From positions 3,987 through 67,986 of the IMG/VR virus record IMGVR_UViG_3300017963_000273: a stretch of 64,000 bases of DNA; one strand, written 5' to 3'. The notes beneath the pieces were generated by a model. The model saw only the letters and a list, made by a program, of their open reading frames with translations. It made no database searches and had not been told where the DNA came from. Shown one piece after another: positions 1 through 54,225 of the stretch. The stretch's first letter is position 1, and every line of letters begins with the position of its first letter. A program made the translations under genes and the position numbers. Source of the stretch: a virus.

Positions 1-96
1 AAGAATAGATTCAGTTGCATATGAAGCTGGTTTATCTTTTAGTAGGGCAATTTTTCTCTCTTTTACATCAAAGACGATATATTTCTCATCACTCAT
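1..96 (-). CDS. Partial hypothetical protein running off the left edge (MSDEKYIVFDVKERK...)
   Basis: ATG at 96 with AAGGAAAAGAG upstream; frame open to position 1. Confidence 0.5.
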   Translation of the reverse strand, partial: MSDEKYIVFDVKERKIALLKDKPASYATESIL

Positions 97-112
97 TTCT
101 CTTTTTCCTTAA

Positions 113-307
113 TTATTTAATTGTGATATCGTTTCGAGCAGCGTATTTTCTAGCACATGGAATAGAACAAAATAGTGTTCCATGGAATGTAGATTGTCCA
201 TATGTAGTTATTCCAAACATCCATGCAGAAGCTTTGCTACACCAAACGATACCAATGTTATGGTCTCTTGCAAATTTCTTTTGACAAACGTCACAAAATC
301 CTTTCAT
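113..307 (-). CDS. Small Cys-rich (Zn-ribbon-like) hypothetical protein
   Basis: CxxC ... FCSxxC motif; GGAGG RBS; downstream of late promoter 328-335. Confidence 0.6.
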   Translation of the reverse strand: MKGFCDVCQKKFARDHNIGIVWCSKASAWMFGITTYGQSTFHGTLFCSIPCARKYAARNDITIK

Positions 308-330
308 GGGAAACCTCCGCTTTGTGTTAT

Positions 331-807
331 TTATAACACAGCTTTAACGGAAGTAATCGCCTTTCCTAAGAGGTTCTGACCTGGCCATTTATCTGGATCA
401 ACTTGTTGTGCATTAGCTTCATCTAAACCAATTCCCCATACTGCATCGTATGGACTAGCTTCAACAAGAATTCTATCTTCTGTCGCCATTAATGCTTCTT
501 TAGCATCTTCATTCTGAGTAAATTTAAGCATATTAGCAGTAAATACAATTTCGTATTTAACCGCGTCCCATACTTTATCATCAAAATTCTTTACTTGACG
601 TCCAAGTTTCTTTTGATCACGTGGATTAAGAGTTGTTAAAACTTTCGCAGCAGTTTCTTCATCTTTAAAAACCATTGCTTTCTTATACATCATGTATTGT
701 TCACAACAATTAAAACGTATACCATGATCATCTACCATTGGAAATTTAGCCCATTGTGAAAATGGTCCATTCCAGAAAAACTCATAATTAGAGTAATTCG
801 GATTCAT
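331..807 (-). CDS. NADAR (YbiA/DUF1768) family N-glycosidase / ADP-ribosyl hydrolase
   Basis: FSQW, EQYMMYKKA, KxLGRxVxNFD, KFTQN, LVEASPYDxxWGIG and GQNLLG motifs. Confidence 0.93.
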   Translation of the reverse strand: MNPNYSNYEFFWNGPFSQWAKFPMVDDHGIRFNCCEQYMMYKKAMVFKDEETAAKVLTTLNPRDQKKLGRQVKNFDDKVWDAVKYEIVFTANMLKFTQNEDAKEALMATEDRILVEASPYDAVWGIGLDEANAQQVDPDKWPGQNLLGKAITSVKAVL

Positions 808-1171
808 AATTTTCTCCTTTAAATACTTCTTTCACTATATCCCAAAAATCCCCATCTTGCATAAGTGCGCCGACGGGGAAACGGGTTTCTTGATCATCAT
901 CAGGTCCAACTGATATAAAGTCTAAATCCTTTATATGATAATCAAATTTCTCAAAATCTTCTATTGTCTCTATAATACCATCAAATAAATTATTTGGTAC
1001 TAAATCAACAACTGCTATTGAAAATTCAGACAATTTGAGACGGTCTTTATAAACTCCTTCAGCTATTGGAATACCAACGCCTAATTCACATTCGTAATTT
1101 TCATCCAATAACCATAAGACAACGTAATCGCTATCTTCTTCCATTCTTGTTACAATTGCTAATTGTTTCAT
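788..1171 (-). CDS. Acidic hypothetical protein
   Basis: ORF with AAGGA RBS; overlaps the next gene. Confidence 0.7.
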   Translation of the reverse strand: MKQLAIVTRMEEDSDYVVLWLLDENYECELGVGIPIAEGVYKDRLKLSEFSIAVVDLVPNNLFDGIIETIEDFEKFDYHIKDLDFISVGPDDDQETRFPVGALMQDGDFWDIVKEVFKGENYESELL

Positions 1172-1186
1172 ACTTTCCTTAAAAGT

Positions 1187-1262
1187 TGGAGCCCAAGGAC
1201 GGCATCGAACCGACGACCTTCCCCTTACGAGGGGGTGACTCTGCCAACTGAGCTACTCGGGC
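1187..1262 (-). tRNA. tRNA-Thr(CGT)
   Basis: GCCCGAG..CTTGGGC acceptor, CT-CGT-AA loop, GGTTCGAT T-arm, encoded CCA. Confidence 0.9.
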
Positions 1263-1495
1263 TTTGCAAATATCCAATTAAATAATCTTTTATACCAAGG
1301 CTTTCTTAATTTAACCAAGTCTTTTTCAACTGATTCAGTTAAACAAGTTAAAATTCCTTTTTGAATAAACTTAGTCATAGCTTCATTATCTAATTCAACA
1401 GTCATAGTTGCTGAACCATCATCATTTTCTTCAATTTTACCAACTATATCAATTTTCATAATATTAGTCCCATAGATGTTGGAAATATTCTCCAA
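1253..1495 (-). CDS. Hypothetical protein (start probably at MKIDIV); stop overlaps tRNA-Thr
   Basis: ENDDGSATMTVELD motif typical of small phage proteins. Confidence 0.65.
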   Translation of the reverse strand: MENISNIYGTNIMKIDIVGKIEENDDGSATMTVELDNEAMTKFIQKGILTCLTESVEKDLVKLRKPWYKRLFNWIFAKPE

Positions 1496-1871
1496 AGAGT
1501 TTAAGACCTTCTTCTATTTTTAATTGTTTTTCTTTATCAATAGTTGCACAATCATCGATAATGTATTCAAATGCTAGTAACATTTTATCAATGATTTTAT
1601 TCCATTTCTTAGGTGTAAGATTTGATGGATAACCATGTTTAATTTTTTTAAGACGTTTTAAACGAGGATATACAAAAATTGCAATGGACATATCTAGATT
1701 CCACAATTCAGAATCAGAAAATCCTCGTTCTTCTAATTGTTCTTTGTTTCTCTTATAATTCTTACGAATTAATTTACTATCACCATTTGGATCAACATCT
1801 TCATCAAAACAAGCAACCTTAGTAGCACGATATTCATAATATGGTTCGTACTTAAATTTCTCTTTTGCCAT
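1464..1871 (-). CDS. Conserved phage hypothetical protein
   Basis: ELWNLD..IAIFVYPRL..HGYP..W..IIDKM..AF..EGLKLFGEYFQHLWD pattern. Confidence 0.75.
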   Translation of the reverse strand: MAKEKFKYEPYYEYRATKVACFDEDVDPNGDSKLIRKNYKRNKEQLEERGFSDSELWNLDMSIAIFVYPRLKRLKKIKHGYPSNLTPKKWNKIIDKMLLAFEYIIDDCATIDKEKQLKIEEGLKLFGEYFQHLWD

Positions 1872-2205
1872 TTACTATACCTAATTTTTTTTTCATATCT
1901 TTCCAAGAAATTTGTTTTGGAAAGTCAATTAATTCAGGTTTCTTTGGAAACATACTTTCAACTTGTCTCTTTGTTGGTATATATCCAAAATCTCTTATAA
2001 GATGAATTTTAGCAGCTTCAACTGCTTCATCACCCCACATTTCTCTAATTTCTTCTAAAGCTTCATCGTGATGACGCCAACGACGATGATTTATATTAAG
2101 CTGACCATCAATACATGAAAGACCATCAAGCCAGGCATGAACTTCATTCCAATCCTTGCCTAGCTTTTCCATACAATCTTCACAATGTATTTTACGAGTT
2201 GCCAT
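1852..2205 (-). CDS. His-rich putative metal-binding protein (DUF6915-like); start re-set to MATRKIH
   Basis: H..VHAWLD..HRRWRHH..IHLIRDFG pattern; the longer ORF-track N-terminus overlaps the upstream gene. Confidence 0.65.
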   Translation of the reverse strand: MATRKIHCEDCMEKLGKDWNEVHAWLDGLSCIDGQLNINHRRWRHHDEALEEIREMWGDEAVEAAKIHLIRDFGYIPTKRQVESMFPKKPELIDFPKQISWKDMKKKLGIVNGKREI

Positions 2206-2392
2206 TTCTATATTGTGTTTTTCGATGTAATTTCCAACTAAAATGATTTTTCCATCTACTAGCTTTACTATTACATCCTCTATTAGGTCTACATCTTGAA
2301 CAAAAACCGTGAATATTACCAAGATAATTATATCTGATTTTTGTATAAACAGAACTATTAGTTGTTGTTTCTAATTCTTTCTTTAGTTTCAT
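2192..2392 (-). CDS. Small basic CxxC protein
   Basis: CSRCRPNRGCN..SWK..RKTQYR; AAGGAG RBS. Confidence 0.7.
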   Translation of the reverse strand: MKLKKELETTTNSSVYTKIRYNYLGNIHGFCSRCRPNRGCNSKASRWKNHFSWKLHRKTQYRNGNS

Positions 2393-2444
2393 GATTAGGC
2401 TCCTTTATTAACCTAATCATGACCCTCCTTAATAAGAATATAGT

Positions 2445-2693
2445 TCATGCTATATCCTCCAATTGAGATTGAAATGATACATCAGCTTTACGTTCTTGCA
2501 TAGTTTTTTCATTAAACCATTTACGTGCGTTTCCACACATAGCACAAGAACATCGCTTTCTTGTATGTGTCATTAGATGTAATTGAGATTCGTATGTCTC
2601 TTTATCGTAGTGTTCATCCATACATTGTTCTTGAATTTTAAGAACACGTCTGGCTTTAATGCGACCTTTATAAAGTCTTTGCGGTCTACTCAT
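2445..2693 (-). CDS. Small basic Zn-binding protein (CSCxxCGNxRK type)
   Basis: CSCAMCGNARKWFNEKTMQERKAD; GAGGT RBS; directly after a promoter. Confidence 0.75.
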   Translation of the reverse strand: MSRPQRLYKGRIKARRVLKIQEQCMDEHYDKETYESQLHLMTHTRKRCSCAMCGNARKWFNEKTMQERKADVSFQSQLEDIA

Positions 2694-2714
2694 AATAATT
2701 ACCTCTACTTAATA

Positions 2715-2744
2715 ATAAATAAACTAGATTTTTTCAAAGTAAAC
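2715..2744 (-). promoter_or_regulatory. Early-type promoter GTTTAC-N16-TTATTT
   Basis: Same consensus at 19546(-), 24292(+), 30080(-), 30667(+), 38881(+), 47334(+); resembles the T4 early -35 GTTTAC. Confidence 0.7.
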
Positions 2745-2761
2745 TCAGAAGATTAAAAAAA

Positions 2762-2837
2762 TGGAGCCCAAGATCGGATTTGAACCGACATCCTCTATCT
2801 TACCAAGATAGCGCTCAGCCAATTGAGCTACATGGGC
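2762..2837 (-). tRNA. tRNA-Thr(GGT)
   Basis: Cloverleaf with CTATC-TT-GGT-AA-GATAG and CCA. Confidence 0.92.
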
Positions 2838-2840
2838 ATT

Positions 2841-2929
2841 TGGTACACCTGGTAGGATTTGAACCTACGAATTCCTTTCGGCCCTCTCGGTGTAAACGAG
2901 ACGCTCTAACCAGACTGAGCTACAGGTGC
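2841..2929 (-). tRNA. tRNA-Val(TAC) with non-canonical long variable arm
   Basis: TCTCG-TT-TAC-AC-CGAGA; 16-nt V region GGGCCGAAAGGAATTC; CCA. Confidence 0.88.
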
Positions 2930-2972
2930 AACTAAGTGAAAGTTTTTAATTTAGGATATACTTTCAAACCTC

Positions 2973-3047
2973 TGGTACATCGAGTGGGATTCGAACCCAC
3001 AATCTTCTGCGTGTCGAGCAGACGTCTAGCCGTTAGACTTTCGATGC
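2973..3047 (-). tRNA. tRNA-Val(GAC)
   Basis: TCTGC-TC-GAC-AC-GCAGA, GTGGGTTCGAATCCCAC T-arm, CCA; A at position 8. Confidence 0.88.
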
Positions 3048-3049
3048 AA

Positions 3050-3295
3050 TTATAAATCTTTAATTTCTCTTCTAAGCAATTCTTTTTGTTTTGCTCTAAA
3101 ACTTTTCTTATAAGGTCTATCAACTTTCTTACGTTGATAATTTTTATTACCAATCATTTCATCAGGACTCCAAGTCCCGATAGAACCTTTAGATTTTTTA
3201 TACTTATTACGATGTTTTGAACAAGCATTTCCACGCCAATTCTTACGAAGTGATTCTTCGTCATTACATTCACCGGTTTTAGTAAAAGGTTTCAT
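3050..3295 (-). CDS. Small basic hypothetical protein inside tRNA array 1
   Basis: ORF with AAGGA RBS exactly fills the gap between tRNAs. Confidence 0.7.
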   Translation of the reverse strand: MKPFTKTGECNDEESLRKNWRGNACSKHRNKYKKSKGSIGTWSPDEMIGNKNYQRKKVDRPYKKSFRAKQKELLRREIKDL

Positions 3296-3312
3296 TATGT
3301 TTCCTTAAATTT

Positions 3313-3399
3313 TGGAAGCGCGAACGGGGGTCGAACCCGCAAGCCCCTAGAGGCACCTGAGTGAAAGTCAGATTGCTTTACCATTTCGCATACCGCGCC
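3313..3399 (-). tRNA. tRNA-Glu(TTC) with class-II-like body (long V arm)
   Basis: TCTGA-CT-TTC-AC-TCAGG; V arm GCCT-CTAG-GGGC; U73; CCA. Confidence 0.85.
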
Positions 3400-3411
3400 A
3401 GTTAAAATTAT

Positions 3412-3488
3412 TGGCGAGCCTGAACGGATTCGAACCGTCAATCGCCCGGGAGACAGCCGGGTGCATTAGCCAATTATGCTACAAGCCC
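3412..3488 (-). tRNA. tRNA-Asp(GTC), U37 variant
   Basis: CCCGG-CT-GTC-TC-CCGGG, G73, CCA. Confidence 0.9.
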
Positions 3489-3493
3489 ATATT

Positions 3494-3570
3494 TGGCGGA
3501 ACTGACGGGACTCGAACCCGCGACCTCTGCAGTGACAGTGCAGCGTTCTTGCCAGCTGAACTACAGCTCC
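3494..3570 (-). tRNA. tRNA-Asp(GTC), canonical
   Basis: CTGCA-CT-GTC-AC-TGCAG, G73, CCA. Confidence 0.95.
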
Positions 3571-3578
3571 ACTAAAAT

Positions 3579-3653
3579 TGGTGACCCGACGGAGGATCGA
3601 ACTCCGATTGCATGGATGAAAACCATGTGTCCTAGCCATTAGACGACCGGGCC
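3579..3653 (-). tRNA. tRNA-Glu(TTC), canonical
   Basis: CATGG-TT-TTC-AT-CCATG, CCA. Confidence 0.93.
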
Positions 3654-3709
3654 ATTACATCACGTTTCTTTTAGAGTTGTCACGTGATCAACCAATCTCA
3701 AATTCTTAT

Positions 3710-4009
3710 TTAGATTTTAGTATAGAAATAACGTTCCTCGAAAATTCCATACCGACGATCTAAATGATTGATGATACTCTCCTTGTCGTCCTCGTCCAAG
3801 AAAGACTCACCAATATCGCTCCTCTCAATTTCATTTTCCTTTCCGCACCAAACTCTCCATCGTTTCCCACGCCCGGAGATTGGCCAGATTTCTTCATGCA
3901 CATATTCAAGCGGGTTGTCATTAATATGAATGACTTTACTAGAAACCACGCCATACGAATCAACAATACCGAGTATACACTCGATGCTTGGATCCATGTT
4001 GTTTTTCAT
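3710..4009 (-). CDS. Hypothetical protein inside tRNA array 1
   Basis: Co-oriented ORF with GAAGGA RBS filling an inter-tRNA gap. Confidence 0.65.
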   Translation of the reverse strand: MKNNMDPSIECILGIVDSYGVVSSKVIHINDNPLEYVHEEIWPISGRGKRWRVWCGKENEIERSDIGESFLDEDDKESIINHLDRRYGIFEERYFYTKI

Positions 4010-4036
4010 TCCTTCTATTTAGGGTTAAAGGTAAAT

Positions 4037-4112
4037 TGGAGCCCATAAACGGAGTCGAACCGATATTCCTGGATTACAAAACCAGTGCCTTAAGCCATTA
4101 GACGATACGGGC
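4037..4112 (-). tRNA. tRNA-Thr(TGT)
   Basis: CTGGT-TT-TGT-AA-TCCAG, GCCCGTA/TATGGGC acceptor, CCA. Confidence 0.88.
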
Positions 4113-4139
4113 TAATAAAAATTATATTTTCAAAGATCT

Positions 4140-4523
4140 TTACAAAAGTTTTAAGTCTTTTGTAATTTTATCAATCTTTTCAGATTGAGCAGGACCAATA
4201 GCTACACATGTTGCTGTTGGTACTCCATTAAATTCTGTTTTACCAGAATCTACAATTAAAGCAAATGGTAAATCTGCTTTATGAGCTTTAGTTCTAATAT
4301 GATATAGTTCAGATTCGCTATCAACTGAAACACATATTTTAGTAAAAGCACCTTCTTTCCATTCCCTCATTTCTTTTGAGAGCCAGATTAAATAAAGTCC
4401 TTTGAAAAAACTTTTCTTAAATCTGTCGAAGAAAACTTTTAAAGATGCATGTGCTACTTGAGCTGCAATCTTACCTTTTCTCATCTTTAGATCCTTACGG
4501 ACCACAATAACCTGTTTTACCAT
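4140..4523 (-). CDS. pth2: Peptidyl-tRNA hydrolase, Pth2 type
   Basis: KQVIVVRKDLKMRKGKIAAQVAHAS, KICVSV, DSGKTEF, TCVAIGP, IDKITKDLKLL. Confidence 0.95.
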   Translation of the reverse strand: MVKQVIVVRKDLKMRKGKIAAQVAHASLKVFFDRFKKSFFKGLYLIWLSKEMREWKEGAFTKICVSVDSESELYHIRTKAHKADLPFALIVDSGKTEFNGVPTATCVAIGPAQSEKIDKITKDLKLL

Positions 4524-4544
4524 TCCTCAATTTCCGTTTTAATT

Positions 4545-4620
4545 TGGTCTCTAAGGCCGGAATTGAACCGCGCACCTCCTGGGTCACAACCAGATATGCA
4601 TCCTTTACACCACCTAGAGC
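4545..4620 (-). tRNA. tRNA-His(GTG) with G-1 opposite A73 and a bulged T-stem
   Basis: TCTGG-TT-GTG-AC-CCAGG; CCA. Confidence 0.82.
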
Positions 4621-4698
4621 TGGTTGGCCGGGTGGGATTTGAACCCACGTAAACTTGTTTATCAGACAAGCTTCAGGACCAGACTCGAATACCGACCA
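4621..4698 (-). tRNA. tRNA-Ile(GAT), first tRNA of array 1
   Basis: CTTGT-CT-GAT-AA-ACAAG, A73, CCA. Confidence 0.9.
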
Positions 4699-4718
4699 AT
4701 CTTGAAAATTAATGCAAT

Positions 4719-4752
4719 AAAAAAGGTGACCGTCTTTATGATGATCACCTCT
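4719..4752 (-). terminator. Attenuator terminator of tRNA array 1
   Basis: GAGGTGATC..GGTCACCTT hairpin plus U6, 20 nt before the first tRNA. Confidence 0.85.
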
Positions 4753-4780
4753 AAAAAATTTATATCTTTAAAATCTATTT

Positions 4781-4876
4781 CTATAGAAGTGATCGATGCA
4801 TGGAATCAGTATCCACGATATCATGATCGTGTTCTACTGTTTCAATAATTGTAGTGGTTGTATTAACTACTAGCAT
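4781..4876 (-). CDS. Leader peptide 1, MLVVNTTTTIIETVEHDHDIVDTDSMHRSLL (31 aa)
   Basis: AGGAG RBS; 21 of residues 3-24 are V/T/I/E/H/D, the amino acids of the downstream tRNAs; 3' end complementary to the terminator arm. Confidence 0.88.
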   Translation of the reverse strand: MLVVNTTTTIIETVEHDHDIVDTDSMHRSLL

Positions 4877-4896
4877 CTTTCGCTCCTATTTGTATT

Positions 4897-4971
4897 TTCT
4901 TAAGTTTATTTATAACTTTTCAATTATTTTTTCGTTGTTATAATATAACCTAAAAACTATAAAAGTATAGT
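4897..4971 (-). promoter_or_regulatory. 75-bp tRNA-array promoter, copy 1 (early-like CTATAC-N16-TTATAT plus late TATAAATA)
   Basis: Identical to 44435-44509. Confidence 0.85.
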
Positions 4972-4992
4972 TGTTTGATTAAAATTTTTAAA

Positions 4993-5343
4993 TTAATTAT
5001 TTTCAGCTTTTGCCTTCATAATATTATAAAAATTTTCAAACTCATATAATAAACGTACTAAATCTGTTTGATGTTCTTCTATCGGTCGTAATGCTTCATC
5101 AAAAGTATCAGTACCATGATAGAAAAAATCACCATCTTGATCATATTCTATAATTCTTTTAATCTTACTTTCGTTTTCTTTAATAAAATCTAATAATTCA
5201 GTTACTGCTGTATCAAAATTAGAATTTAATCTTGTTAGTTCAGCAATATCTAAATCATCTGTTATTTTTTTAACTATTTGGTTACGTGAAGGTCTTTTAA
5301 AAGCTTCACGTATTGTTTTTAGTTGTTTTTCAAAATTACTCAT
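4993..5343 (-). CDS. EAFK-family putative internal head protein; start re-set to MSNFEK
   Basis: N-terminus MSNFEKQLKTIRE-AFK shared with six other ORFs. Confidence 0.65.
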   Translation of the reverse strand: MSNFEKQLKTIREAFKRPSRNQIVKKITDDLDIAELTRLNSNFDTAVTELLDFIKENESKIKRIIEYDQDGDFFYHGTDTFDEALRPIEEHQTDLVRLLYEFENFYNIMKAKAENN

Positions 5344-6073
5344 CTTTATTATCCTTTCGAGCAGTAGCTTCTTTATACCATTGTGCGTATGTTTTCGCGC
5401 GATCTTTAGCTGGACCATCATCCTTTTTTAAATCAGCACGAATAGTATCATTATTTCTAAATTCTTTCCAAAGTGTTTTAAGATCAGTATGATCTTTTCT
5501 AACTAATTTCCTAAAATTTGGCATTGCATTAACACCATATCTGTAACTTGCATCTAATAACCATTTTTGAACAGTTGGATGCATTTCTTCATATTCTGGA
5601 TAACGAGCTTCAAGTTCTTTAACTTTCTTAGCAACCATAATTCTAAGAAGAACTCCTGCTAATTTTTCATCAACAGTTGCTCTTCCAGTTTTTAATTGTT
5701 CCCAATTAGTACCATAAGCTTTTAAGATAGGATCCATCCAAGATGAATAATGTGTACCATGACCAATTGCAAAACCAGTACGATCATGTCTTGGAGATTT
5801 ATCTATACCTTCCCATTCTTTTAGCTTAAGAATATATTCTCCAAGCCAATTATAAGTTTGTTGTACAGCTTTCTTTTTAGGTTCTTCTTTAGGTGCTTCA
5901 ATTGTTTGAATTTTCTGATTAGGAGTTTTAGTTTGTATACAATCTTTATCTCCTTTTTTACAACTAGCTCCACTTATTGTTAATCCAGTTGCTAACGCTC
6001 CAGCAGCTAATTTTTTAGCAATTCCAGCTTCATCAATAAGATGTAATTTTTCATATAATTTTTGATATTTCAT
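5336..6073 (-). CDS. Lysozyme-like (GH24-type) muramidase with N-terminal targeting/hydrophobic segment
   Basis: LKEWEG..DRTG.AIGHG resembles the phage lysozyme E..D..T/IGxG motif; next to baseplate genes. Confidence 0.6.
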   Translation of the reverse strand: MKYQKLYEKLHLIDEAGIAKKLAAGALATGLTISGASCKKGDKDCIQTKTPNQKIQTIEAPKEEPKKKAVQQTYNWLGEYILKLKEWEGIDKSPRHDRTGFAIGHGTHYSSWMDPILKAYGTNWEQLKTGRATVDEKLAGVLLRIMVAKKVKELEARYPEYEEMHPTVQKWLLDASYRYGVNAMPNFRKLVRKDHTDLKTLWKEFRNNDTIRADLKKDDGPAKDRAKTYAQWYKEATARKDNKDE

Positions 6074-6075
6074 TA

Positions 6076-6510
6076 TTAGGCCGATGGTAGTATATAATTA
6101 TAAGTTATTGAGTTAATATTAAGTGTTGGAACATTAACTTCTATTTCTACGTAATATTCATTAGAATCTTCATCAGGAAAAACATTAACAGAAACAATTC
6201 TAACACGTGGTTCCCATGTGTTAATTGCATTTTTAATTGATGCACCAATTGAACGAGCAGTTTCATCTGTTATTGGTTCATACATATAATCATTGAGTGG
6301 ATTACCAAATTCAGGATTAAGTATTCGTTCACCTTTTCTCCAGTTAAAAATATTTCTTAAGCTATTTCTTATAGCATCAAGATCAAAGTTAGCTTGAAGA
6401 TCAAAGTTAGCTGAATCTTTAACAATTGGAATATCAATATCTTTAAAGCGCCAATTCTTTGATTTACTTTCTTCTTGTGCAAATGCTGCATTAAACGTTA
6501 TTGAGCCCAT
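6076..6510 (-). CDS. Baseplate wedge subunit, gp25-like
   Basis: AIRNSLRNIF..KGERILNPEFG..YEP..WEPRV. Confidence 0.93.
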   Translation of the reverse strand: MGSITFNAAFAQEESKSKNWRFKDIDIPIVKDSANFDLQANFDLDAIRNSLRNIFNWRKGERILNPEFGNPLNDYMYEPITDETARSIGASIKNAINTWEPRVRIVSVNVFPDEDSNEYYVEIEVNVPTLNINSITYNYILPSA

Positions 6511-6531
6511 ATTAACCTCTTTTCCTTATAT

Positions 6532-7593
6532 TTATAAAGAACTGATATCAGGTGGGAAACCTGGTAAAACAAATTGTAAAAATTCACAAAATGTTAATTG
6601 TCCTGTTTCAGAATTAAGTGGTGCTGGCCAGCCAGGCCATCCTGGTAAATCACTAAAAAATTCTGCCGCATAAGCTATCCAATCCAGTAATTCTTTAAAC
6701 GGTGCAAATATAGCTGCCATAAACGCAACAGCTAAACGCCTTGCTAAATCAGCAGTTCTAATTAATAAACCAACTGCTCTATCGGGAACTGTATCAATAT
6801 CTTTAATTTTAACATTAAGAATTGGAATTGTAATTTCACCAATCGCAGTATAAATAGCTTCTATATTATCTCCTAAAGTATCAAAAATTCCATCAATTGT
6901 ATTACTAATACTTGTCCAAATATCTTGTAATGTAGGAGGATCGTCAAGTCCTAAAGCATCCCAGATATCTTCAAACGTAGATATTAATGTACCCATTATA
7001 TCAAAAATCGGTTGTAAAAGAGTATTAGCAGTTTGAGTCATTAAACTAGTAAACCACTCAACTACCTTAACATCTTTCATAATTGGTCCAAATGGTGGTT
7101 TAAACATCTTATCTAATGGAGACGGTAAATCAAAATCTAAATCTATTAAATCGGATAATTCTTGTTTCATTTCTCCACGTTTAGTTTCATCAAATAAATC
7201 TCCAACTGTAAAATCATCTAATGGCCAAGGTAATGGGATAGCTAGAATATCAAATGGAATAAGTAAATTAATAATTTCAGCTAATTTCACTATAAAGAAA
7301 ATTTGCATTTCATTCATTATAGCTTTCATCTTTTGTTCGATTTTAATATCAAAAGAATCTAATGAACCAAACAGTGGATCATTTGCAGATAATGGCCAAA
7401 GTCCTCCAAAAATTTCATCAAAAGTATCGATAATTGCTTGTGCTTCTTCACCAAGCCCGTTCAATACATATAATGTTTTCTTATATGCCATATCTTTAAA
7501 TGATACAACAATATCACCAATCATTGGAAAAGGATTAGCTGGACATGGAGGATTTTCTAAAATAACACCACTTGGAGGAGGAAAATCTGACAT
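6532..7593 (-). CDS. Acidic, Pro-rich hypothetical virion protein
   Basis: Between gp5 and gp25 homologues; AGGAG RBS. Confidence 0.7.
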   Translation of the reverse strand: MSDFPPPSGVILENPPCPANPFPMIGDIVVSFKDMAYKKTLYVLNGLGEEAQAIIDTFDEIFGGLWPLSANDPLFGSLDSFDIKIEQKMKAIMNEMQIFFIVKLAEIINLLIPFDILAIPLPWPLDDFTVGDLFDETKRGEMKQELSDLIDLDFDLPSPLDKMFKPPFGPIMKDVKVVEWFTSLMTQTANTLLQPIFDIMGTLISTFEDIWDALGLDDPPTLQDIWTSISNTIDGIFDTLGDNIEAIYTAIGEITIPILNVKIKDIDTVPDRAVGLLIRTADLARRLAVAFMAAIFAPFKELLDWIAYAAEFFSDLPGWPGWPAPLNSETGQLTFCEFLQFVLPGFPPDISSL

Positions 7594-7604
7594 TATAAAT
7601 CTCC

Positions 7605-8516
7605 TTAATTAACAGTAGTTGCAGGGCTTGAGATCAAGATTGAAGTTGTACCAGTCATAGAATGTGTTCCAGCTTGTTGTGTTTTTGCACCAGTAATAGT
7701 TTCAGCTTTACTAGCAGCATTTTCAGTAACAGCGCCTGTAACATTTTCAGTAACGTTTCCACCAATTGTTTCTTGAACATTAGTAGTAACGTTTGTAGTT
7801 AAATTTTGATTAAAAGTTTCTTGAACATCTTTGGCAACCTCAATTGTAAAAGTATCATTATATTTTTCATCTACTTTACCTTGAACTTGTTCATATTTAT
7901 CGCCTTCAACTTTTCTATAAAGATTACCTTTGATAGTTTCATGAACATTACCATCATATTGTGCATAACCATTTCCAGTAACTTTAATATTCGCATTACC
8001 AACAATAGTTAAATCAAAGTTTCCAGATAATTCAACTGTAGTACGTAATGGCATATTTGATTCTACAACACTTGCAGCTGCTGCATTATCAATTGTGCAA
8101 TCAGCATTATAAGAGTTACGTTGTGCTGTAGATTTTTCGTTAGATGGATCTTCATCAATTCTAATCATTACACTTTTTGTTTGTAATGTATATTGTTGAT
8201 TATGTTCAGCTATCCAACCATCACCGCCTTGACAAGCGGCAAAATAAACAGGAAACATATGATCACCTTGATTAAAGAAAACCCAAACTTCTGCACCAAC
8301 AATTGGCCAACCAGCCCAGCCTGTTTCTTCATTTCCACCATTTACACTTGCGTTACCACCAAATAATGGCATTGCAGGTTCTGCAGGTGGTAGTGCATTT
8401 GGTGTTTTTTCAAATTCTGATGGATAAACACCAGGAACAAAAATTCTACATTGTCCCCTTTTATCAGCTGTACCAACAACTCTTCCTCTAAACATTCCAT
8501 TAAAATTACTAGACAT
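7605..8516 (-). CDS. Baseplate spike, gp5/VgrG-like (OB fold plus beta-helix; no lysozyme domain)
   Basis: GRVV..RGQCRIFVPG, PIVGAEVWVFFNQGD; 8-residue VxGxxxxx repeats. Confidence 0.88.
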   Translation of the reverse strand: MSSNFNGMFRGRVVGTADKRGQCRIFVPGVYPSEFEKTPNALPPAEPAMPLFGGNASVNGGNEETGWAGWPIVGAEVWVFFNQGDHMFPVYFAACQGGDGWIAEHNQQYTLQTKSVMIRIDEDPSNEKSTAQRNSYNADCTIDNAAAASVVESNMPLRTTVELSGNFDLTIVGNANIKVTGNGYAQYDGNVHETIKGNLYRKVEGDKYEQVQGKVDEKYNDTFTIEVAKDVQETFNQNLTTNVTTNVQETIGGNVTENVTGAVTENAASKAETITGAKTQQAGTHSMTGTTSILISSPATTVN

Positions 8517-36020: not shown

Positions 36021-36096
36021 GACAATATTTATATTTTCAAAATAGAAAATCAAATTATTTATAAATAAATATGAAAACTAAAGAGGAGATTTCATA

Positions 36097-44173: not shown

Positions 44174-44259
44174 TGGTGGTGCGGGTAGGAATCGAACCTA
44201 CGATGTTTCTAATGTAACTGTTTTACAGACAGCGTCCTTCGCCGCTTGGATACCACACC
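44174..44259 (-). tRNA. tRNA-Tyr(GTA), first tRNA of array 2
   Basis: GCTGT-CT-GTA-AA-ACAGT, A73, CCA. Confidence 0.9.
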
Positions 44260-44280
44260 ATATTTAAGAATTTGCCCAAT

Positions 44281-44306
44281 AAAAAAGGCGAGCTTTGTAG
44301 CTCGCC
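44281..44306 (-). terminator. Attenuator terminator of tRNA array 2
   Basis: GGCGAGCT-ACAA-AGCTCGCC-TTTTTT, 21 nt before the first tRNA. Confidence 0.9.
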
Positions 44307-44338
44307 AGTAACCGGGGGGAGATTATTTAATATCCATT

Positions 44339-44419
44339 TTAGTCACAGCGAGCTTGCATTAGCGAATAGCTCCAAGATTGGAGTTGACTAAGTAAATATT
44401 GCTGTGATAAAATGTTCAT
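44339..44419 (-). CDS. Leader peptide 2, MNILSQQYLLSQLQSWSYSLMQARCD (26 aa)
   Basis: AGGA RBS; residues 4-20 are exclusively L/S/Q/Y/W, the amino acids of the downstream tRNAs; 3' end pairs with the terminator arm. Confidence 0.9.
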   Translation of the reverse strand: MNILSQQYLLSQLQSWSYSLMQARCD

Positions 44420-44434
44420 ATTAGTTTCCTAAAA

Positions 44435-44509
44435 TTCTTAAGTTTATTTATAACTTTTCAATTATTTTTTCGTTGTTATAATATAACCTAAAAACTATAA
44501 AAGTATAGT
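44435..44509 (-). promoter_or_regulatory. 75-bp tRNA-array promoter, copy 2
   Basis: Identical to 4897-4971. Confidence 0.85.
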
Positions 44510-44533
44510 AGCTTTAAATAAATTTTTAACTCC

Positions 44534-44989
44534 TTACATTTTATTTAAATATGCGTTAGCTATTCGAGGTTTAAGTTTATTTAATGCTTTATTAAGATCT
44601 GAACCTCTAATAATTCCTGGTCTTTCATAGACTATAGTTTCATTACCAGCTTTAATACTGGAAAATCTAACTTTTACTAAATCTTCAGTAACAATAACTT
44701 CTAAAAATATAATAATTGGCGTTTTGATAAAATTATCTGCTTTATCCCTATAAGATACTGTAGTTACAATTTGTGGTAGGCCCCCACCACGATTAACTAA
44801 TTCATTTGGTTTAATTTTATCTTTTATTTTAGCTAAAATCAACTGTTTAATTTCAGTAGGTAATAATTCATCTTCAGTTGACATAACAAAATCATCAACT
44901 TGAATTTCATCAAATTCACTAAAAAACTTATCATATAACTTATTAAAAGTTGGAACTTTAAAAGCTTCTGTTAATTTACAAAATTTCAT
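44534..44989 (-). CDS. EAFK-family putative internal head protein
   Basis: MKFCKLTE-AFK. Confidence 0.7.
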   Translation of the reverse strand: MKFCKLTEAFKVPTFNKLYDKFFSEFDEIQVDDFVMSTEDELLPTEIKQLILAKIKDKIKPNELVNRGGGLPQIVTTVSYRDKADNFIKTPIIIFLEVIVTEDLVKVRFSSIKAGNETIVYERPGIIRGSDLNKALNKLKPRIANAYLNKM

Positions 44990-47301: not shown

Positions 47302-47407
47302 GATATAATCTCCTCTAATAATGATATTTATAAGTTTACATGTTTAAAAACGTGATTATAAATTAATATAGATTTTATAAATAATTTATAAAAGGGAGTA
47401 AATTATA

Positions 47408-49555: not shown

Positions 49556-52144
49556 ATGGATAAATTAAGACCTGTTGTAAATATTACATTAGACGAAAAC
49601 GTTGAACTACATACTCACTCAGAAGTTATTAATAACTGGCAAGATATTCAAATATTATCTGGTGGAACAGCTAGTGAAGTAAGATATATTTCAGGTGTTG
49701 TAGATGATAATACAGCCGATATCGCACAAATTATTGATGGCGATATTGTAATGACTGGGAATAAGAATATATATGGTAATGTTACTGTATATGGTTCTTT
49801 TTATGCGCTTTCTGCTGTCATTATTACTACTGAAGAATTTGCTTTAAGTTCTAATTTTATTGATCTTAATAATAATTGGACATCAGGTATTCCATTAGAA
49901 GATGCAGGTATTCGTGTTATTCGTGGAGATGAACCTTCTTCAGAACTTCGTTGGAACGAATCTGGCGATTATTGGGAGGCTGGAGAAGCAGGTTCTTTAG
50001 AACGACTTGTCACTTCAGGAGATATTGATGAAATTTCTCATAGTAATCTTAATGATTTAGAATGGTCTAATGCTGGTCATACAATTGATGAAGATGTTTA
50101 CTTTGGTAGTAATGATCTTTCTGGTGTAGGTGGAGTATTCTTCGATATTACGGATATACATGAACATGAGGGTGAAGGACTTGTACACTGGAATCCAGAC
50201 GAACAAACATTAGATGTTCATACTGGGTTAGGGCCTATTCTTCAAGTTGGTCAAGAAATTCATACCCTCGTTTATAATAATACTCAAAGTATTATTCCAA
50301 ATGGTACTGTAATTTATCCAACTGGTATTATCAATAATAAGCCAGCTGTTTCACCAGCAACTGCTGAAACACATGAAGGATTTACTTTAGGTGTTGCTGT
50401 AGCTACTATGGATATTCCTCTTAGTGGAGATGGAATTGGTATTGTTGCTCGTGCAGGTGCTGTTCGTGATTTAGATACTACTTCTTTGACTCCAGGTGCT
50501 CCAGTTTATTTATCACCTCTAAGCGGTGGTGTTCTTACTAGCACTAGACCAGAATTCCCTAATTATGTAGTTCAGATTGGTGGTTGCTTTGAATCACATC
50601 CAACTTCAGGTGCTATTGAGTTAGAAATTGATGCTGACCAAGAAGATACATTTGCAAATGCGTTTAATGGAAGTTTCAGGGAAAGTATCGATTTCTTAGT
50701 AGATTCTGATGGAACTAATGTATCAGGTTTCTTAACGCCGTCTAATGGCAATGTAGACATGACAATGTGTTTCTCTGATGGTTTTAGTCTTTTAGATACT
50801 TCCCCATTTGCATATGTTGCGCTTACTCCAGGTACAGATACTAACCCACAACGCAACTATGTGTATATTACTAAAGATAATAAGTATCTTGAAGTTAGTA
50901 CGTCGTCATGGCCCGATTCTTCAACTGAACATATTAAAGTTGCAGATATCATTCTTATGAGTGCTGCAACAACTCAGACTGATGATGCGCTTAAGAATCA
51001 AAACTGGAATGATCACGTTCGTGGCGTTGACGGTAATGGACATATTGTTCATATTGCTGAAGCGCTTCGTAGAAAAGTTGGAGCAACTTGGTTAAACGGT
51101 ACAGCTGGCTCTGCCACAGTTAGTGGTACACCTTCTGATGTTCTAATTAGTGTTACGGGTGGTAATATAATGCAGATGCATCAACAAACATTTCCTGCAT
51201 TATCAAATCCTTCAGATGACTTGCATATCGTTAATAACTTTACGACACCGTATGCACGAGTATCTAATTTAAATACTCAGACTTCTGATGCTCTTGGTAA
51301 TACTCTAGCAAATAGCTCGTTCTCAGTAGTTTTATGGGGAATTGCTAACAAGACTGGCGAAACATCTCATATGATGATTAACTTACCTACTGATTCATAT
51401 GCTAAAAACGATCCAGATTCTGCAGTATCAGATGCTTTGAATTATTCTGTATACTCAATTCCAAATGAATTCCAAAGCGTTGGATTTCTTATTGCAAGAT
51501 TTACATTTATTCTTGAAGCTAATGGCACTACTTGGACTCTCTATGATACTGAAGATCTTCGTGGTAAGATTCCAAATAGTACTGCCGGTGGTGGAGCAGG
51601 TGGAACTGGTGTAACAGATTTTACTGGCCTCACAGATACTCCAACTTCTTATAGTGGAGCTGGTGGATATTTAGTTCAAGTTAACGATGCTGAAAATGCA
51701 ACGGAGTTTACAACAGATCCTACAGTTAATACTTTAGGAGTTGGTACTGCAACACAACTAAGCGGTGCATTACTAACTGTAGACGGTAGCGGTTATTTTG
51801 AAAATAATCTTATAGTTCAAGGCCAATCTTGGTCTGAAACAAGTACTCTTACAGATGCCGCATCTATTGCAACAGATTGTGATGATGGTAATGTTCATAC
51901 AGTTACTTTGACTGCTAACCGAGCACTAGCAAATCCAACTAATCTTAAAGATGGTGCAACATATATTTGGATCATCAAACAGGATGGAACTGGTAGTAGA
52001 ACTCTTACATATGGTTCAGCATTTAAGTTCCCAGGCGGATCAATACCAACTCTTACAACTGGTACTCCAAATGCCGTTGATATTTTGACGGGTGTTTCAG
52101 ACGGAACTAATGTTTATTGTTCCATGCAATTCGATTTTAGTTAA
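49556..52144 (+). CDS. Tail fibre-like structural protein
   Basis: DAGIRVIRG..RWNE..D.W shaft motif, LTDTPTSYSG repeat, C-terminal QDGTGSRTLT domain. Confidence 0.8.
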   Translation: MDKLRPVVNITLDENVELHTHSEVINNWQDIQILSGGTASEVRYISGVVDDNTADIAQIIDGDIVMTGNKNIYGNVTVYGSFYALSAVIITTEEFALSSNFIDLNNNWTSGIPLEDAGIRVIRGDEPSSELRWNESGDYWEAGEAGSLERLVTSGDIDEISHSNLNDLEWSNAGHTIDEDVYFGSNDLSGVGGVFFDITDIHEHEGEGLVHWNPDEQTLDVHTGLGPILQVGQEIHTLVYNNTQSIIPNGTVIYPTGIINNKPAVSPATAETHEGFTLGVAVATMDIPLSGDGIGIVARAGAVRDLDTTSLTPGAPVYLSPLSGGVLTSTRPEFPNYVVQIGGCFESHPTSGAIELEIDADQEDTFANAFNGSFRESIDFLVDSDGTNVSGFLTPSNGNVDMTMCFSDGFSLLDTSPFAYVALTPGTDTNPQRNYVYITKDNKYLEVSTSSWPDSSTEHIKVADIILMSAATTQTDDALKNQNWNDHVRGVDGNGHIVHIAEALRRKVGATWLNGTAGSATVSGTPSDVLISVTGGNIMQMHQQTFPALSNPSDDLHIVNNFTTPYARVSNLNTQTSDALGNTLANSSFSVVLWGIANKTGETSHMMINLPTDSYAKNDPDSAVSDALNYSVYSIPNEFQSVGFLIARFTFILEANGTTWTLYDTEDLRGKIPNSTAGGGAGGTGVTDFTGLTDTPTSYSGAGGYLVQVNDAENATEFTTDPTVNTLGVGTATQLSGALLTVDGSGYFENNLIVQGQSWSETSTLTDAASIATDCDDGNVHTVTLTANRALANPTNLKDGATYIWIIKQDGTGSRTLTYGSAFKFPGGSIPTLTTGTPNAVDILTGVSDGTNVYCSMQFDFS

Positions 52145-52154
52145 GGAGTAGTTT

Positions 52155-53489
52155 ATGTTTACGTTTCCCTTTACATTATTTACTATAGCGACACCTTGGA
52201 CACCTGCCTCGTTAGCTACTACATTGTGGGTCGATCCTTCTGATGAAAGTTCTATCACAACGAACGCTTCAACTGATTCTTATGGTTGGGTTGCCGCTGA
52301 GATGGACGAGACCAATACATACAGAATGTTCGGTTTGAATTATGGCCCTAACGGTGGATCGAACGTTGGAGAAATTGATTATGCGATATACCCGTTTAAC
52401 AATGGTAATGTTCTCGTATATGAGAGCGGCGTCAACAAAGGTATAAAGTCCACGTATGTGACAGGTGATGTTCTAATGGTACGAAAAAATGGTACTACAG
52501 TTGAATATCTTAAGAATGGTACTGTCATTTATACGTCATTAACATCGGCTACTGCCGGTGCTGATATGTATTTTGATTGTGCATTATACAGTAATGGTTG
52601 TACCTTGAAAGATGTTAAGTCCTCTTATGGTGATGTCATATTCACTGATGTTGTAGGGTGTTCTGTAACTGGTAATGACCTAACGAAGACTGCTAGTCAG
52701 AGTTGGGGTAATGCTGGTGCTTACTCTACTAACCCTGCATGTACATCTGGTAACTTTGTTAGTCAGATAGATGACAAAAGTGGTAACGATTATCACCTTA
52801 CTAAGTCAGTCATTGAATCTGAACCTATGACAGGTATAAAGACTATTAATGGTCTTAATGCTTTATCATTTGATGGTGAAAGTAATATTCTAAGCAAGGC
52901 AAGTTTGAGCATAGACTGTGACGTGGTTGAGGCGTATGTCATATTTAGGAGCAGTAATTTATCTCTTGAAGACTCTGTAGGGCATATCTTCAACACAAGA
53001 CCCGAAAACGCTACACAGGGCCGAAATAGGATTTCAGCGGATGGCACTGAACTATTCTCTAGGTTAGGTGGTACACTAAATACTAACGCTTCCGATGCAG
53101 ACGCATTAACTGTTGATACTGAGTATCTAATCTCTAATTGGGGTGATACATCGGGCAATATATTATACGTCAATGGTTCTGAAGCCGCAAGTGCTGGAGC
53201 ATATGATCAAGATGCTAATCATACTAGACTACAAGTTGGTGGCACGAACACTGCTGGTTTTGTCAGAGGTGTAATTGGAGAGTTGGTGTTCATAACGGGA
53301 ACAAATCTGTCCACTGCTGACCGTCAAAAGCTCGAAGGCTATTTAGCTTGGAAGTGGGGATTACGATTCCAGTTACCAGACGATCACCCATACAGATATG
53401 ATGGATCATTATTTGGTTATCCATATGATCTTAGCGATAGTGGTGAAGAACTTGCCGCTATATTCTTAACATTAAATAAAGGAATTTAA
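52155..53489 (+). CDS. Fibre-associated LamG-like protein
   Basis: WTPASL..LWVD.SD..VSQIDDKSGN..RQKLEGYLAWKWGL. Confidence 0.75.
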   Translation: MFTFPFTLFTIATPWTPASLATTLWVDPSDESSITTNASTDSYGWVAAEMDETNTYRMFGLNYGPNGGSNVGEIDYAIYPFNNGNVLVYESGVNKGIKSTYVTGDVLMVRKNGTTVEYLKNGTVIYTSLTSATAGADMYFDCALYSNGCTLKDVKSSYGDVIFTDVVGCSVTGNDLTKTASQSWGNAGAYSTNPACTSGNFVSQIDDKSGNDYHLTKSVIESEPMTGIKTINGLNALSFDGESNILSKASLSIDCDVVEAYVIFRSSNLSLEDSVGHIFNTRPENATQGRNRISADGTELFSRLGGTLNTNASDADALTVDTEYLISNWGDTSGNILYVNGSEAASAGAYDQDANHTRLQVGGTNTAGFVRGVIGELVFITGTNLSTADRQKLEGYLAWKWGLRFQLPDDHPYRYDGSLFGYPYDLSDSGEELAAIFLTLNKGI

Positions 53490-53492
53490 ATT

Positions 53493-54101
53493 ATGGCACA
53501 ATTATACGTACTTGTAGAAGATGCAACAATAGACATTACAAATTGGAACACCCTTGGTTGGGAAGGAACTGCTGCTGGTGGTGGTGGTGGTCACTCTACT
53601 GGAAGTACTAACACAGGTTCCGGTGGAGGAGCAGGTGAATATGGAGCAGGATTCATTGATGTTTCTAGTGATACATCACTTTCAGGAGTTCTTGGTGCCG
53701 CAGGAACAGGAGGAATAAATGGAGGTGCCGTAGCAACTGCAGCCGCAGACACTACACTTGCAGGTGACGTTAGTAATAATCTACTCACCCTCACTGGTGG
53801 TGGTGGAGGGAATCTTAATGGCGCGGGTGGAACTGGTGGAACAGGTGGCAGTGGTGATGGTCGTCTTGCAGGTGGAACTGGACAAAATGCCTATTCTGGA
53901 GGAGCATCTAATGGTTGCGGAGGTGGAGGATACTCTCCGGGCAATCAATCTGGTCTTTCTAATGCTGGTTCTAATAGTGGAACAACCGACACCGATGCCG
54001 CTGAATACGCCGCATGGGGAGCAGGTGGTTCTGGTGGCGGTAACGAGGGTAACGGGTCAAAAGGTGGAGCCGCTAAACTCATAATTTGGAAAATAGATTA
54101 A
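53493..54101 (+). CDS. Glycine-rich adhesin-like protein
   Basis: GGGG/GGxG repeats typical of polyglycine fibre tips. Confidence 0.75.
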   Translation: MAQLYVLVEDATIDITNWNTLGWEGTAAGGGGGHSTGSTNTGSGGGAGEYGAGFIDVSSDTSLSGVLGAAGTGGINGGAVATAAADTTLAGDVSNNLLTLTGGGGGNLNGAGGTGGTGGSGDGRLAGGTGQNAYSGGASNGCGGGGYSPGNQSGLSNAGSNSGTTDTDAAEYAAWGAGGSGGGNEGNGSKGGAAKLIIWKID

Positions 54102-54114
54102 GGACATTACATAG

Positions 54115-54225
54115 CTATTCATAGTTACTCGCCAAAAGATCGAAGGTTACCTCGCATGGAAGTGGGGTCTTGAAAATGACTTGCCGAGCGATCATCCGCA
54201 CAAGAGTGCACCGCCAACAGTATAA
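54115..54225 (+). pseudogene. Orphan 3' gene remnant (TRQKIEGYLAWKWGLENDLPSDHPHKSAPPTV)
   Basis: Matches the C-terminal motif of 52155..53489; in-frame TAG upstream and no start. Confidence 0.75.

Follow-up and report, generated by a model that had tools for sequence, protein, structure and literature searches.

What governs the transcription of a tRNA (transfer RNA) array in a phage is the question raised by a locus in the virus record IMGVR_UViG_3300017963_000273, of which we analysed a stretch of 64,000 nucleotides (nt), the window (positions 3,987 to 67,986 of the record). There, on the minus strand at 4890-4719, a small open reading frame (ORF) and a hairpin with a run of T residues stand directly before an array of tRNA genes, and the initial annotation had proposed that a ribosome translating the ORF samples the amino acids of the downstream array and so controls transcription into it. 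The present analysis, conducted in silico only, supports this proposal and adds two further matched copies of the element. From sequence comparison and folding models, we place at roughly three in four the probability that the element, termed attenuator 1, belongs to a set of three paralogous transcription attenuators that are ribosome-mediated and each gate one tRNA array, and we regard the attenuation reading as very probably right in outline.

Three leaders and the tRNA arrays behind them

All features of attenuator 1 lie on the minus strand. Leader ORF 1 (4876-4781; 31 codons plus stop), which encodes MLVVNTTTTIIETVEHDHDIVDTDSMHRSLL, was borne out together with an AGGAG ribosome-binding site (RBS; 4887-4883, read from the sequence) positioned 6 nt before the ATG. 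Codons 3-24 (4870-4805) form a putative sensor tract in which 21 of 22 residues are Val, Thr, Ile, Glu, His or Asp, the count given in the initial annotation, with N5 as the sole exception; the sensor amino acids are exactly those of the 11 tRNAs encoded downstream. The synonymous codons that had been listed for this tract (GTA/GTT/GTG, ACA/ACC/ACT, CAC/CAT and ATT/ATC) are all present and ACG is indeed the missing Thr codon, while the proposed complementarity between GATCACTTCTA (4794-4784), within the last sense codons, and TAGAGGTGATC (4753-4743) holds over all 11 positions with one pair being G-U. Beyond the ORF lies a predicted intrinsic terminator, consisting of a stem-loop at 4751-4723 (-12.8 kcal/mol) and T6 at 4724-4719, and tRNA-Ile starts at 4698, 20 nt further on.

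The array that follows (array 1, 4698-2762, minus strand; ARAGORN and Rfam) is ordered as tRNA-Ile(gat), His(gtg), a PTH2 gene (4523-4140), Thr(tgt), a 99-amino-acid ORF, Glu, Asp, Asp, Glu, an 81-amino-acid ORF, Val(gac), Val(tac) and Thr(ggt), with tRNA-His beginning 1 nt after tRNA-Ile. The PTH2 product matches the peptidyl-tRNA hydrolase family in Pfam (PF01981, 125.6 bits), and the small ORFs of the array have no family match. tRNA-Thr(cgt), whose codon ACG is absent from leader 1, lies 1.5 kilobases downstream of the array (1262-1187, minus strand), and the initial annotation had tied the missing codon to a separate promoter for this gene at 2744-2715. The consensus scan did not return that promoter, and TTGAAA-17-TATTAA can be read by eye at 2737-2709. 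The proposed connection is undercut by tRNA-Leu(caa) and tRNA-Lys(ctt), which are internal to the other arrays and likewise have no codon in their leaders, so that the missing ACG needs no special promoter.

At the level of sequence, the decisive evidence for reading the element as an attenuator is paralogy, as three units share a layout of upstream repeat, small ORF, predicted antiterminator, terminator and tRNA array. Copy 1 of the 95-nt repeat (4991-4897; repeat family D8), the presumptive promoter region, carries the promoter-like motif TATAAATA at 4914-4907. Copy 2 (44529-44435, minus strand) is 94% identical to copy 1, has TATAAATA at 44452-44445, and is followed by leader ORF 2 (44419-44339, minus strand; 26 codons), which has an AGGA RBS 7 nt from its ATG and encodes MNILSQQYLLSQLQSWSYSLMQARCD, a peptide rich in Leu, Ser, Gln, Tyr and Trp. 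A third copy is located in the same contig outside the window, and behind it leader 3 encodes MFTINNRRGMKPGFNPAKPRCFFLRPCL, with a sensor set of Gly, Ala, Asn, Phe, Lys and Pro plus Arg, Cys and Met, followed by a terminator and array 3. A 52-mer from the repeat has exactly two matches in the window and none in shuffled sequence.

Array 2 (44259-42030, minus strand; default ARAGORN, with relaxed ARAGORN and Rfam for Ser) comprises, in order, Tyr, Tyr, Trp, Gln(ttg), Leu(tag), Leu(caa), Leu(gag), Ser(gct), two Leu(taa), Ser(gga), Ser(tga), Gln(ctg) and Ser(cga). Default ARAGORN returned two Tyr, one Trp, two Gln and five Leu tRNAs and no Ser, which left the five Ser residues of leader 2 unexplained and led to a search that uncovered four tRNA-Ser genes missed by the standard finder. 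These genes, all called by relaxed ARAGORN on the minus strand, are Ser(gct) at 43300-43214, Ser(gga) at 42829-42742, Ser(tga) at 42513-42427 and Ser(cga) at 42116-42030, the last also read by eye. All four are class II, three are additionally matched by the Rfam tRNA clan at a relaxed threshold, and one overlaps a spurious 65-amino-acid ORF (43185-43382). The Ser codons of leader 2 (TCA, AGT, TCT, AGC and TCG) provide a cognate for each of the four. Array 3, on the same contig just outside the window, contains two Gly, one Ala, one Asn, two Phe, two Lys and one Pro tRNA and is cut off by the contig end, before which no tRNAs for Arg, Cys or Met, residues abundant in leader 3, are seen. Together, the three arrays cover 17 amino acids with no overlap.

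The correspondence between leaders and arrays was assessed by assigning each residue, with the start Met excluded, to the set of array 1, 2 or 3 or to none, giving counts of 22/5/1/2 for leader 1, 2/18/2/3 for leader 2 and 2/2/16/7 for leader 3. Own-set residues account for 22/30, 18/25 (L/S/Q/Y/W) and 16/27, respectively, with the last figure rising to 23/27 if Arg, Cys and Met are added. Against the phage's own proteome frequencies (0.36 for the array 1 set), the binomial tails are 3.5e-5, 2.8e-7 and 6e-3, and the 3x3 comparison of leaders with arrays yields a chi-square of 70.8 (P=1.5e-14; off-diagonal counts 1-5). Because tRNA-Ser was sought only after leader 2 had been seen, this leader was retested with Ser left out and remains matched to its array (13/25, P=7.5e-5). 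Ranked by own-set content among the 324 six-frame ATG-initiated ORFs of 20-45 amino acids in the contig, leaders 1, 2 and 3 stand 1st, 2nd and 1st. The leaders also contain more distinct codons than synonymous resampling gives (58 versus 51.4 +/- 2.4, P=0.005), and their codons are rarer than those of the phage genes (P=1e-4), a diversity and rarity that would fit a codon sampler.

Within the window, TATAAATA is present at 27 sites versus 12.4 +/- 3.5 in shuffles, and an ORF of at least 60 amino acids starts 10-45 nt downstream of 15/27 of these sites versus 3.2% of random positions. The ATGs of leader 1 (30 nt) and leader 2 (25 nt) are spaced from the motif as in other phage genes. The motif is likely a late-type promoter of this phage, as judged from this distribution, and resembles what we take to be the T4 late-promoter consensus. 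Further examples are found at 36060-36067, 41391-41398, 47376-47383 and 54221-54228 (plus strand) and 6536-6529 (minus strand), 17-40 nt before many ORF starts. Upstream of attenuator 1, a 142-amino-acid ORF on the minus strand ends at 4993, and an AT-rich hairpin (4972-4955, minus strand) follows its stop codon within repeat copy 1.

Several tRNA genes and intergenic stretches in the arrays have unusual features. Long extra arms are present in tRNA-Trp(cca) (88 nt, 44056-43969), tRNA-Val(tac) (89 nt, 2929-2841) and one tRNA-Glu(ttc) (87 nt, 3399-3313), all on the minus strand, with the second tRNA-Glu(ttc), at 75 nt, being normal; such arms are unusual for Trp, Val and Glu identities. Two stretches inside array 2 have no assigned gene (43798-43665 and 43498-43390, minus strand), the first of which ends with a T-arm-like hairpin and ...CACCA, resembling a tRNA 3' end. 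No finder calls a tRNA there; the stretch may hold a small RNA of another kind, or a tRNA that is degenerate or has been interrupted. Outside the window, at G000:C1:125-276 (minus strand), inspection by eye shows a tRNA 3' half (T-arm, acceptor strand and CCA) and, 9 nt beyond it, a tRNA 5' half (acceptor strand and D-arm); the two acceptor strands are complementary, and the arrangement could represent a permuted or broken tRNA gene between the tRNA-Lys and tRNA-Pro of array 3.

Predicted alternative RNA structures and the proposed switch

The 201-nt stretch of attenuator 1 folds at -49.3 kcal/mol versus -28.7 +/- 3.6 for shuffled sequence (z=-5.8; 0/200 shuffles as low). In the minimum-energy fold, region 1 (4889-4873), which runs from the RBS to the start codon, is paired with region 2 (4799-4783), which comprises the last sense codons and the stop, and the CACGAT/ATCGTG hairpin remarked on in the initial annotation as a possible pause signal (4831-4814) is present between them. 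Region 2 has an alternative partner in region 3 (4753-4743), with which it pairs through 4794-4784 and which serves at once as the predicted antiterminator 3' strand and as the terminator 5' arm, segment 4 being the terminator 3' arm. Helices analogous to that of regions 1 and 2 occur in leaders 2 and 3. In leader 2 the corresponding elements, also on the minus strand, are region 1 (44414-44401), region 2 (44354-44341) and, spanning 44313-44281, region 3 (44313-44299) with terminator 2 (44306-44287, -14.0 kcal/mol; T6 at 44286-44281). The last codons are complementary to the terminator 5' arm in all three leaders, and each leader has a GC-rich hairpin and T-run 20-27 nt before the first tRNA (-12.8, -14.0 and -18.6 kcal/mol). 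A cmscan of Rfam (E<=1; 1-8000 and 42000-44700) identified no leader family and no T-box; it returned tRNA-clan matches and a few sub-threshold matches to unrelated families.

To compare the two states, energies were computed for the ORF tail and downstream RNA only, with the last codons masked for the terminator state. Leader 1 with its tail free adopts the antiterminator at minimum energy (-20.8 versus -13.8 for the terminator state), as do leader 2 (-28.6 versus -14.6) and leader 3 (-24.3 versus -18.9), and the antiterminator is lost in all three once the last codons are masked. The initial annotation had made its reading depend on an antiterminator competitive with the terminator, and the antiterminator is competitive because it wins these constrained folds, the terminator returning with a ribosome on the last codons. 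The tail-to-arm duplex of leader 1 amounts to -16.4 kcal/mol, and the duplexes of leaders 1, 2 and 3 are equalled or beaten by 0.09%, 0.7% and 2.9% of 9706 contig windows, respectively.

When the whole leader is free, regions 1 and 2 pair and the terminator probability is 0.62, 0.98 and 0.59 for leaders 1, 2 and 3. Masking a stalled ribosome and the queue behind it lowers these values to 0.05-0.3, ~0.2 and 0.02-0.2, respectively, and masking a ribosome at the stop codon restores the terminator. For stalls at later codons, the antiterminator is favored if queued ribosomes are assumed to occupy all the RNA between the RBS and the stall. The sensor tract of leader 1 ends (4805) about where, we infer, a stalled ribosome would start to cover region 2.

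Each of the three units thus has the parts of an attenuator as judged from sequence and folding: a putative leader ORF with an RBS, codons for its own array, a terminator, an antiterminator and a predicted helix between regions 1 and 2. The geometry is that of classical attenuation, since the segment that a terminating ribosome would cover pairs with the terminator 5' arm and the sensor tract lies just upstream. We infer a scheme in which transcription would start just downstream of the TATAAATA promoter and produce a leader RNA carrying the AGGAG site and the 31-codon ORF, codons 3-24 of which are nearly all read by tRNAs of its own array. If no ribosome loads, region 1 would pair with region 2, allowing the terminator to form and transcription to end at ~4719. 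With translation coupled to transcription and undelayed, a ribosome at the last codons or stop would cover region 2 and the terminator would again form. Should charged tRNA be scarce for any sensor codon, the ribosome would stall upstream and leave region 2 free to pair with region 3, permitting readthrough into the tRNA-Ile and tRNA-His genes, PTH2 and the Thr, Glu, Asp and Val tRNAs. The newly made tRNAs would then lift the stall and close the loop, a negative feedback on decoding capacity since the array products are the tRNAs that read the sensor codons. The division of amino acids among three leaders would supply each array on demand, and PTH2 would be co-induced upon ribosome stalling.

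Relatives in other phages and rival readings

Contigs of the window stretch from two DNA metagenome runs are identical across the leader 1 region and provide no natural variants; in these runs the unitig depth of the upstream repeat is ~2-3x that of its flanks, depth not being equal to copy number. Searches for close relatives were negative: blastn of 4400-5500 found no match among GenBank phages, tblastn of the 151-amino-acid protein upstream of leader 2 had no match, and neither the 142-amino-acid upstream protein nor a 22-mer of the promoter repeat (0 matches) was found in viral contigs. Relatives of PTH2 were identified at 108 loci, of which 28 are viral and 80 are metagenome loci; none of them exceeds 64% identity or is syntenic. 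In the Xanthomonas phage XacN1, examined as a candidate, the PTH2 gene does not adjoin tRNAs.

A structure-first screen for terminator-like hairpins within 110 nt of a tRNA, covering 109 loci plus this contig, returned 11 combinations of ORF, terminator and tRNA at 6 terminator sites, and the four lowest composition P values belong to leaders 1-3 and one other locus, L053. This locus, in an unrelated viral or metagenome contig, is a candidate analogue by composition. Its leader MNKVTIITTAATAGTGTEDICVV precedes tRNAs for Ala(tgc), Thr(tgt), Gly(gcc) and Gly(tcc), and the end of the ORF copies the 3' arm of a 12-base-pair terminator with one mismatch. In L051, MNIKNFTFIYCLHCYLPLYIPLWGLLR precedes tRNAs for Tyr, Arg, Cys, Leu (three), Trp, Pro and His (P=7e-5) and was left ambiguous as an analogue, there being no canonical terminator between ORF and tRNA. 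L056, L007, L073 and L084 were weak candidates, with L056 ambiguous. In related uncultured phages, a tRNA with anticodon CTA (ARAGORN label 'Pyl') is encoded in L053 (7794-7865) and L008 (2482-2558), possibly an amber-suppressor tRNA.

A candidate analogue by architecture, G001, likewise in an unrelated viral or metagenome contig, was located by a pattern search with the terminator 2 word. There, TATAAATA is followed by a 22-codon ORF, MKNESTLKYALRGINCPQWYFI, with 16 amino-acid types in 21 residues (diversity P=0.013), and downstream of the leader lie a 224-amino-acid ORF and 19 tRNAs for 17 amino acids, of which those for Asp, His and Val are not represented by any leader codon. Sequence words of leader 2 recur in region 2 and the terminator of G001, where the lowest-energy state is the antiterminator (-26.4 versus -13.5). 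A 244-amino-acid protein encoded upstream of the G001 leader is marginally similar to a 245-amino-acid protein upstream here (E=0.002, a single comparison). The 17-mer of the terminator 2 arm is found at 29 viral loci, with the element itself present only in L115/G001 and no tRNA just downstream of the match at the other 28. A gapped pattern of region 2 and terminator was matched at 3 loci, two of which, L144 and L145, lack tRNAs and were matched by chance within coding sequence. On this comparison the putative design exists beyond this phage but is not general.

Several observations weigh against the attenuator reading. No close relative was found, by DNA or flanking proteins, against which covariation of the helices could be scored. 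Among the 46/108 PTH2-relative loci that carry tRNAs (221 in all), a composition-first screen considered 82 small ORFs ending within 140 nt of a tRNA, and just 5 have a binomial P<0.01 where ~0.8 are expected; three cultured phages, namely E. coli phage A4, Vibrio phage Pylo and Aeromonas phage AerS_266, have no leader-like ORF in their tRNA regions (all P>0.1). The analogues are themselves imperfect: in L053 and L056 the terminator is still the minimum-energy fold with the tail free, so that antitermination in L053, where the terminator is the equilibrium fold, could arise only kinetically, and a clear Shine-Dalgarno sequence is missing from L053. The set test for G001 is non-significant (16/21 in the 17-amino-acid set), and its leader contains Lys, Asn and Cys with no tRNA in view. 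In the phage studied here, the RBS of leader 3 (GGAG) is 11 nt from its ATG, and the ribosome-free terminator probability is just ~0.6 for leaders 1 and 3. At equilibrium with a single ribosome, the antiterminator is favored by early stalls only, at codons ~1-6 (leader 1), 3-11 (leader 2) and 2-5 (leader 3); later stalls, according to the model, would favor it only if trailing ribosomes covered region 1 or if the fold were trapped kinetically. The initial annotation had described the codons as spread across isoacceptors, and the listed codons are there, with an excess over synonymous resampling that is only weak (26/29 anticodons with a cognate leader codon versus 23.3 +/- 1.5, P=0.07), Thr(cgt), Leu(caa) and Lys(ctt) having none in their own leaders. 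Rare-codon enrichment would likewise be expected of non-coding sequence. Finally, TATAAATA also occurs inside array 2 (42738-42731, minus strand), 23 nt before a 63-amino-acid Cys-rich ORF (42707-42516), where it could act as an internal promoter that bypasses attenuator 2 for the distal tRNAs.

The explanation that best survives beside attenuation, one we nonetheless regard as unlikely, is that the ORFs are translated and matched to their arrays and act by another route or with opposite polarity. Translation might open a fold that sequesters the RBS and protect or process the precursor, a ribosome close behind the polymerase might suppress termination, with efficient decoding then yielding more tRNA, or the leaders might mainly serve late-infection timing. 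The minimum-energy fold of leader 1 does sequester its own RBS, and most stall positions of a single ribosome leave the equilibrium short of the antiterminator. The hairpin and T-run of L051 lie inside the ORF, an opposite logic, and the promoter motif resembles the late type. Set against this, the classical geometry of stalling and readthrough is present in all three leaders, and if only stability mattered, there would be no evident use for a terminator standing 20 nt ahead of the first tRNA.

A far less probable account treats the element as an untranslated structured leader, or as the terminator of the upstream unit, with the ORFs and their composition coincidental. The strong fold (z=-5.8) would suit such an RNA, as would rare codons of the kind seen in non-coding sequence. 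Coincidence is, however, difficult to reconcile with the three-way match (P=1.5e-14) of ORFs that rank 1st or 2nd among 324, with start codons at gene-like spacing from TATAAATA, with a Ser-rich leader 2 that led to four unannotated tRNA-Ser genes, and with the composition match shown independently by L053. Terminator 1 is also not simply the end of the upstream unit, because the promoter repeat separates it from the upstream gene. Least credible is that the ORFs encode functional micro-peptides whose composition is set by peptide function and not by codon sensing, since, for all their ribosome-binding sites and position behind promoters, the three peptides have no common sequence and each mirrors its own array, every ORF end is constrained through pairing with a terminator arm, and the neighboring small proteins have no Pfam or PHROG family, peptides of leader size themselves not having been searched.

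An extension of the attenuator reading, which we advance tentatively, is that the attenuators form a three-channel, demand-driven tRNA supply that would partition all 20 amino acids. Each leader, as a codon sampler under constant translation, would probe whether the infected cell is still able to decode the codons of its array, and the array would be released, together with peptidyl-tRNA hydrolase, only when decoding falters. Such a release might be set off by anticodon nucleases of the host, by breakdown of host tRNA as infection proceeds, or by a host tRNA pool out of step with phage codon usage. With related designs in other uncultured phages (L053 and G001), this would be a widespread and overlooked class of tRNA-gene regulation with a built-in sensor of tRNA-targeting defence.

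Known attenuators and the setting of the contig

Ribosome-mediated attenuation is a textbook class of mechanism, and enterobacterial leader attenuators that respond to one or several amino acids include thr (Thr/Ile), ilvGMEDA (Ile/Val/Leu), his, leu, trp and pheA; the pheL leader is mentioned in PMC3082878. The phage elements resemble these in having a short leader ORF that follows an RBS and contains a stretch of regulatory codons, in the alternation of 1:2 and 3:4 (terminator) pairing with 2:3 (antiterminator) pairing, with the stop codon beside segment 2, and in the intrinsic terminator directly before the first regulated gene. In contrast to them, the phage cargo is tRNA genes and a peptidyl-tRNA hydrolase, not biosynthetic enzymes or synthetases, and the sensors sample 5-9 amino acids and ~20 different codons where enterobacterial runs sample one to three amino acids. 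The presence of three paralogous units that split the amino acids, the phage-borne location and the TATAAATA-type promoter are further differences.

Two other systems are similar in part. The pheST operon of E. coli, with its pheM leader, has leader-peptide attenuation of a translation component for the same amino acid, but it is cellular, responds to one amino acid and controls an aminoacyl-tRNA synthetase, whereas the phage element would control the tRNAs themselves. In T-box riboswitches, too, the state of a particular tRNA decides between a terminator and an antiterminator that precede translation-related genes, but T-boxes bind uncharged tRNA directly with a conserved structure and involve no ribosome or ORF, whereas the phage element has an ORF, an RBS and in-frame sensor codons. 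For tRNA genes, the known controls act on the promoter, through growth rate and stringent control, and on processing.

The cargo is that of the literature on phage tRNA arrays, namely large arrays in big phages, with PTH2 in related phages. In the available parts of four papers (PMC10264068, PMC11555353, PMC11464382 and PMC7824862), such arrays are treated as a counter-measure to host tRNA cleavage or depletion. The available text of the jumbo-phage review PMC7824862 makes no mention of attenuation or leader (peptide), and that of PMC10264068, on phage tRNAs and anticodon nucleases, no mention of attenuation, leader, terminator or promoter. No leader-peptide attenuation of tRNA genes was found in full-text searches of the literature, with supplements and subscription-only literature outside the search, and we could not find a description of the tRNA cargo, the broad codon-sampler leader, the three-way partition of amino acids or the phage setting.

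If the attenuator reading is true, the operon product, tRNA, would be the very molecule whose scarcity the leader measures, making the system a direct homeostat for decoding capacity. Phage tRNA arrays would then be inducible insurance and not a constitutive supplement, with ties to the arms race over tRNA-cleaving defence, and the elements would offer small, modular sensors for decoding at specific codons.

The window belongs to a viral contig of 67,986 bases with a CheckV completeness estimate of 29%. PHROGs matches to tail sheath, tail tube and baseplate hub assign the source, an uncultured marine virus, to the myoviruses. A NADAR-domain protein (PF08719, 174.8 bits) is encoded at 331-807 on the minus strand, in the interval that separates arrays 1 and 3 and not far from the PTH2 gene. 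Gly-rich GGT/GGA repeat units (family D2; 51578-54444, plus strand) lie within large ORFs beside the tail genes, and these ORFs probably encode fibre-like structural proteins. A similar N-terminal start is common to several genes (24236, 28876, 29465, 30589 and 44954; repeat families D5/D7), among them the 151-amino-acid gene directly upstream of leader 2, and this sharing points to a group of small paralogous proteins that lack a family match.

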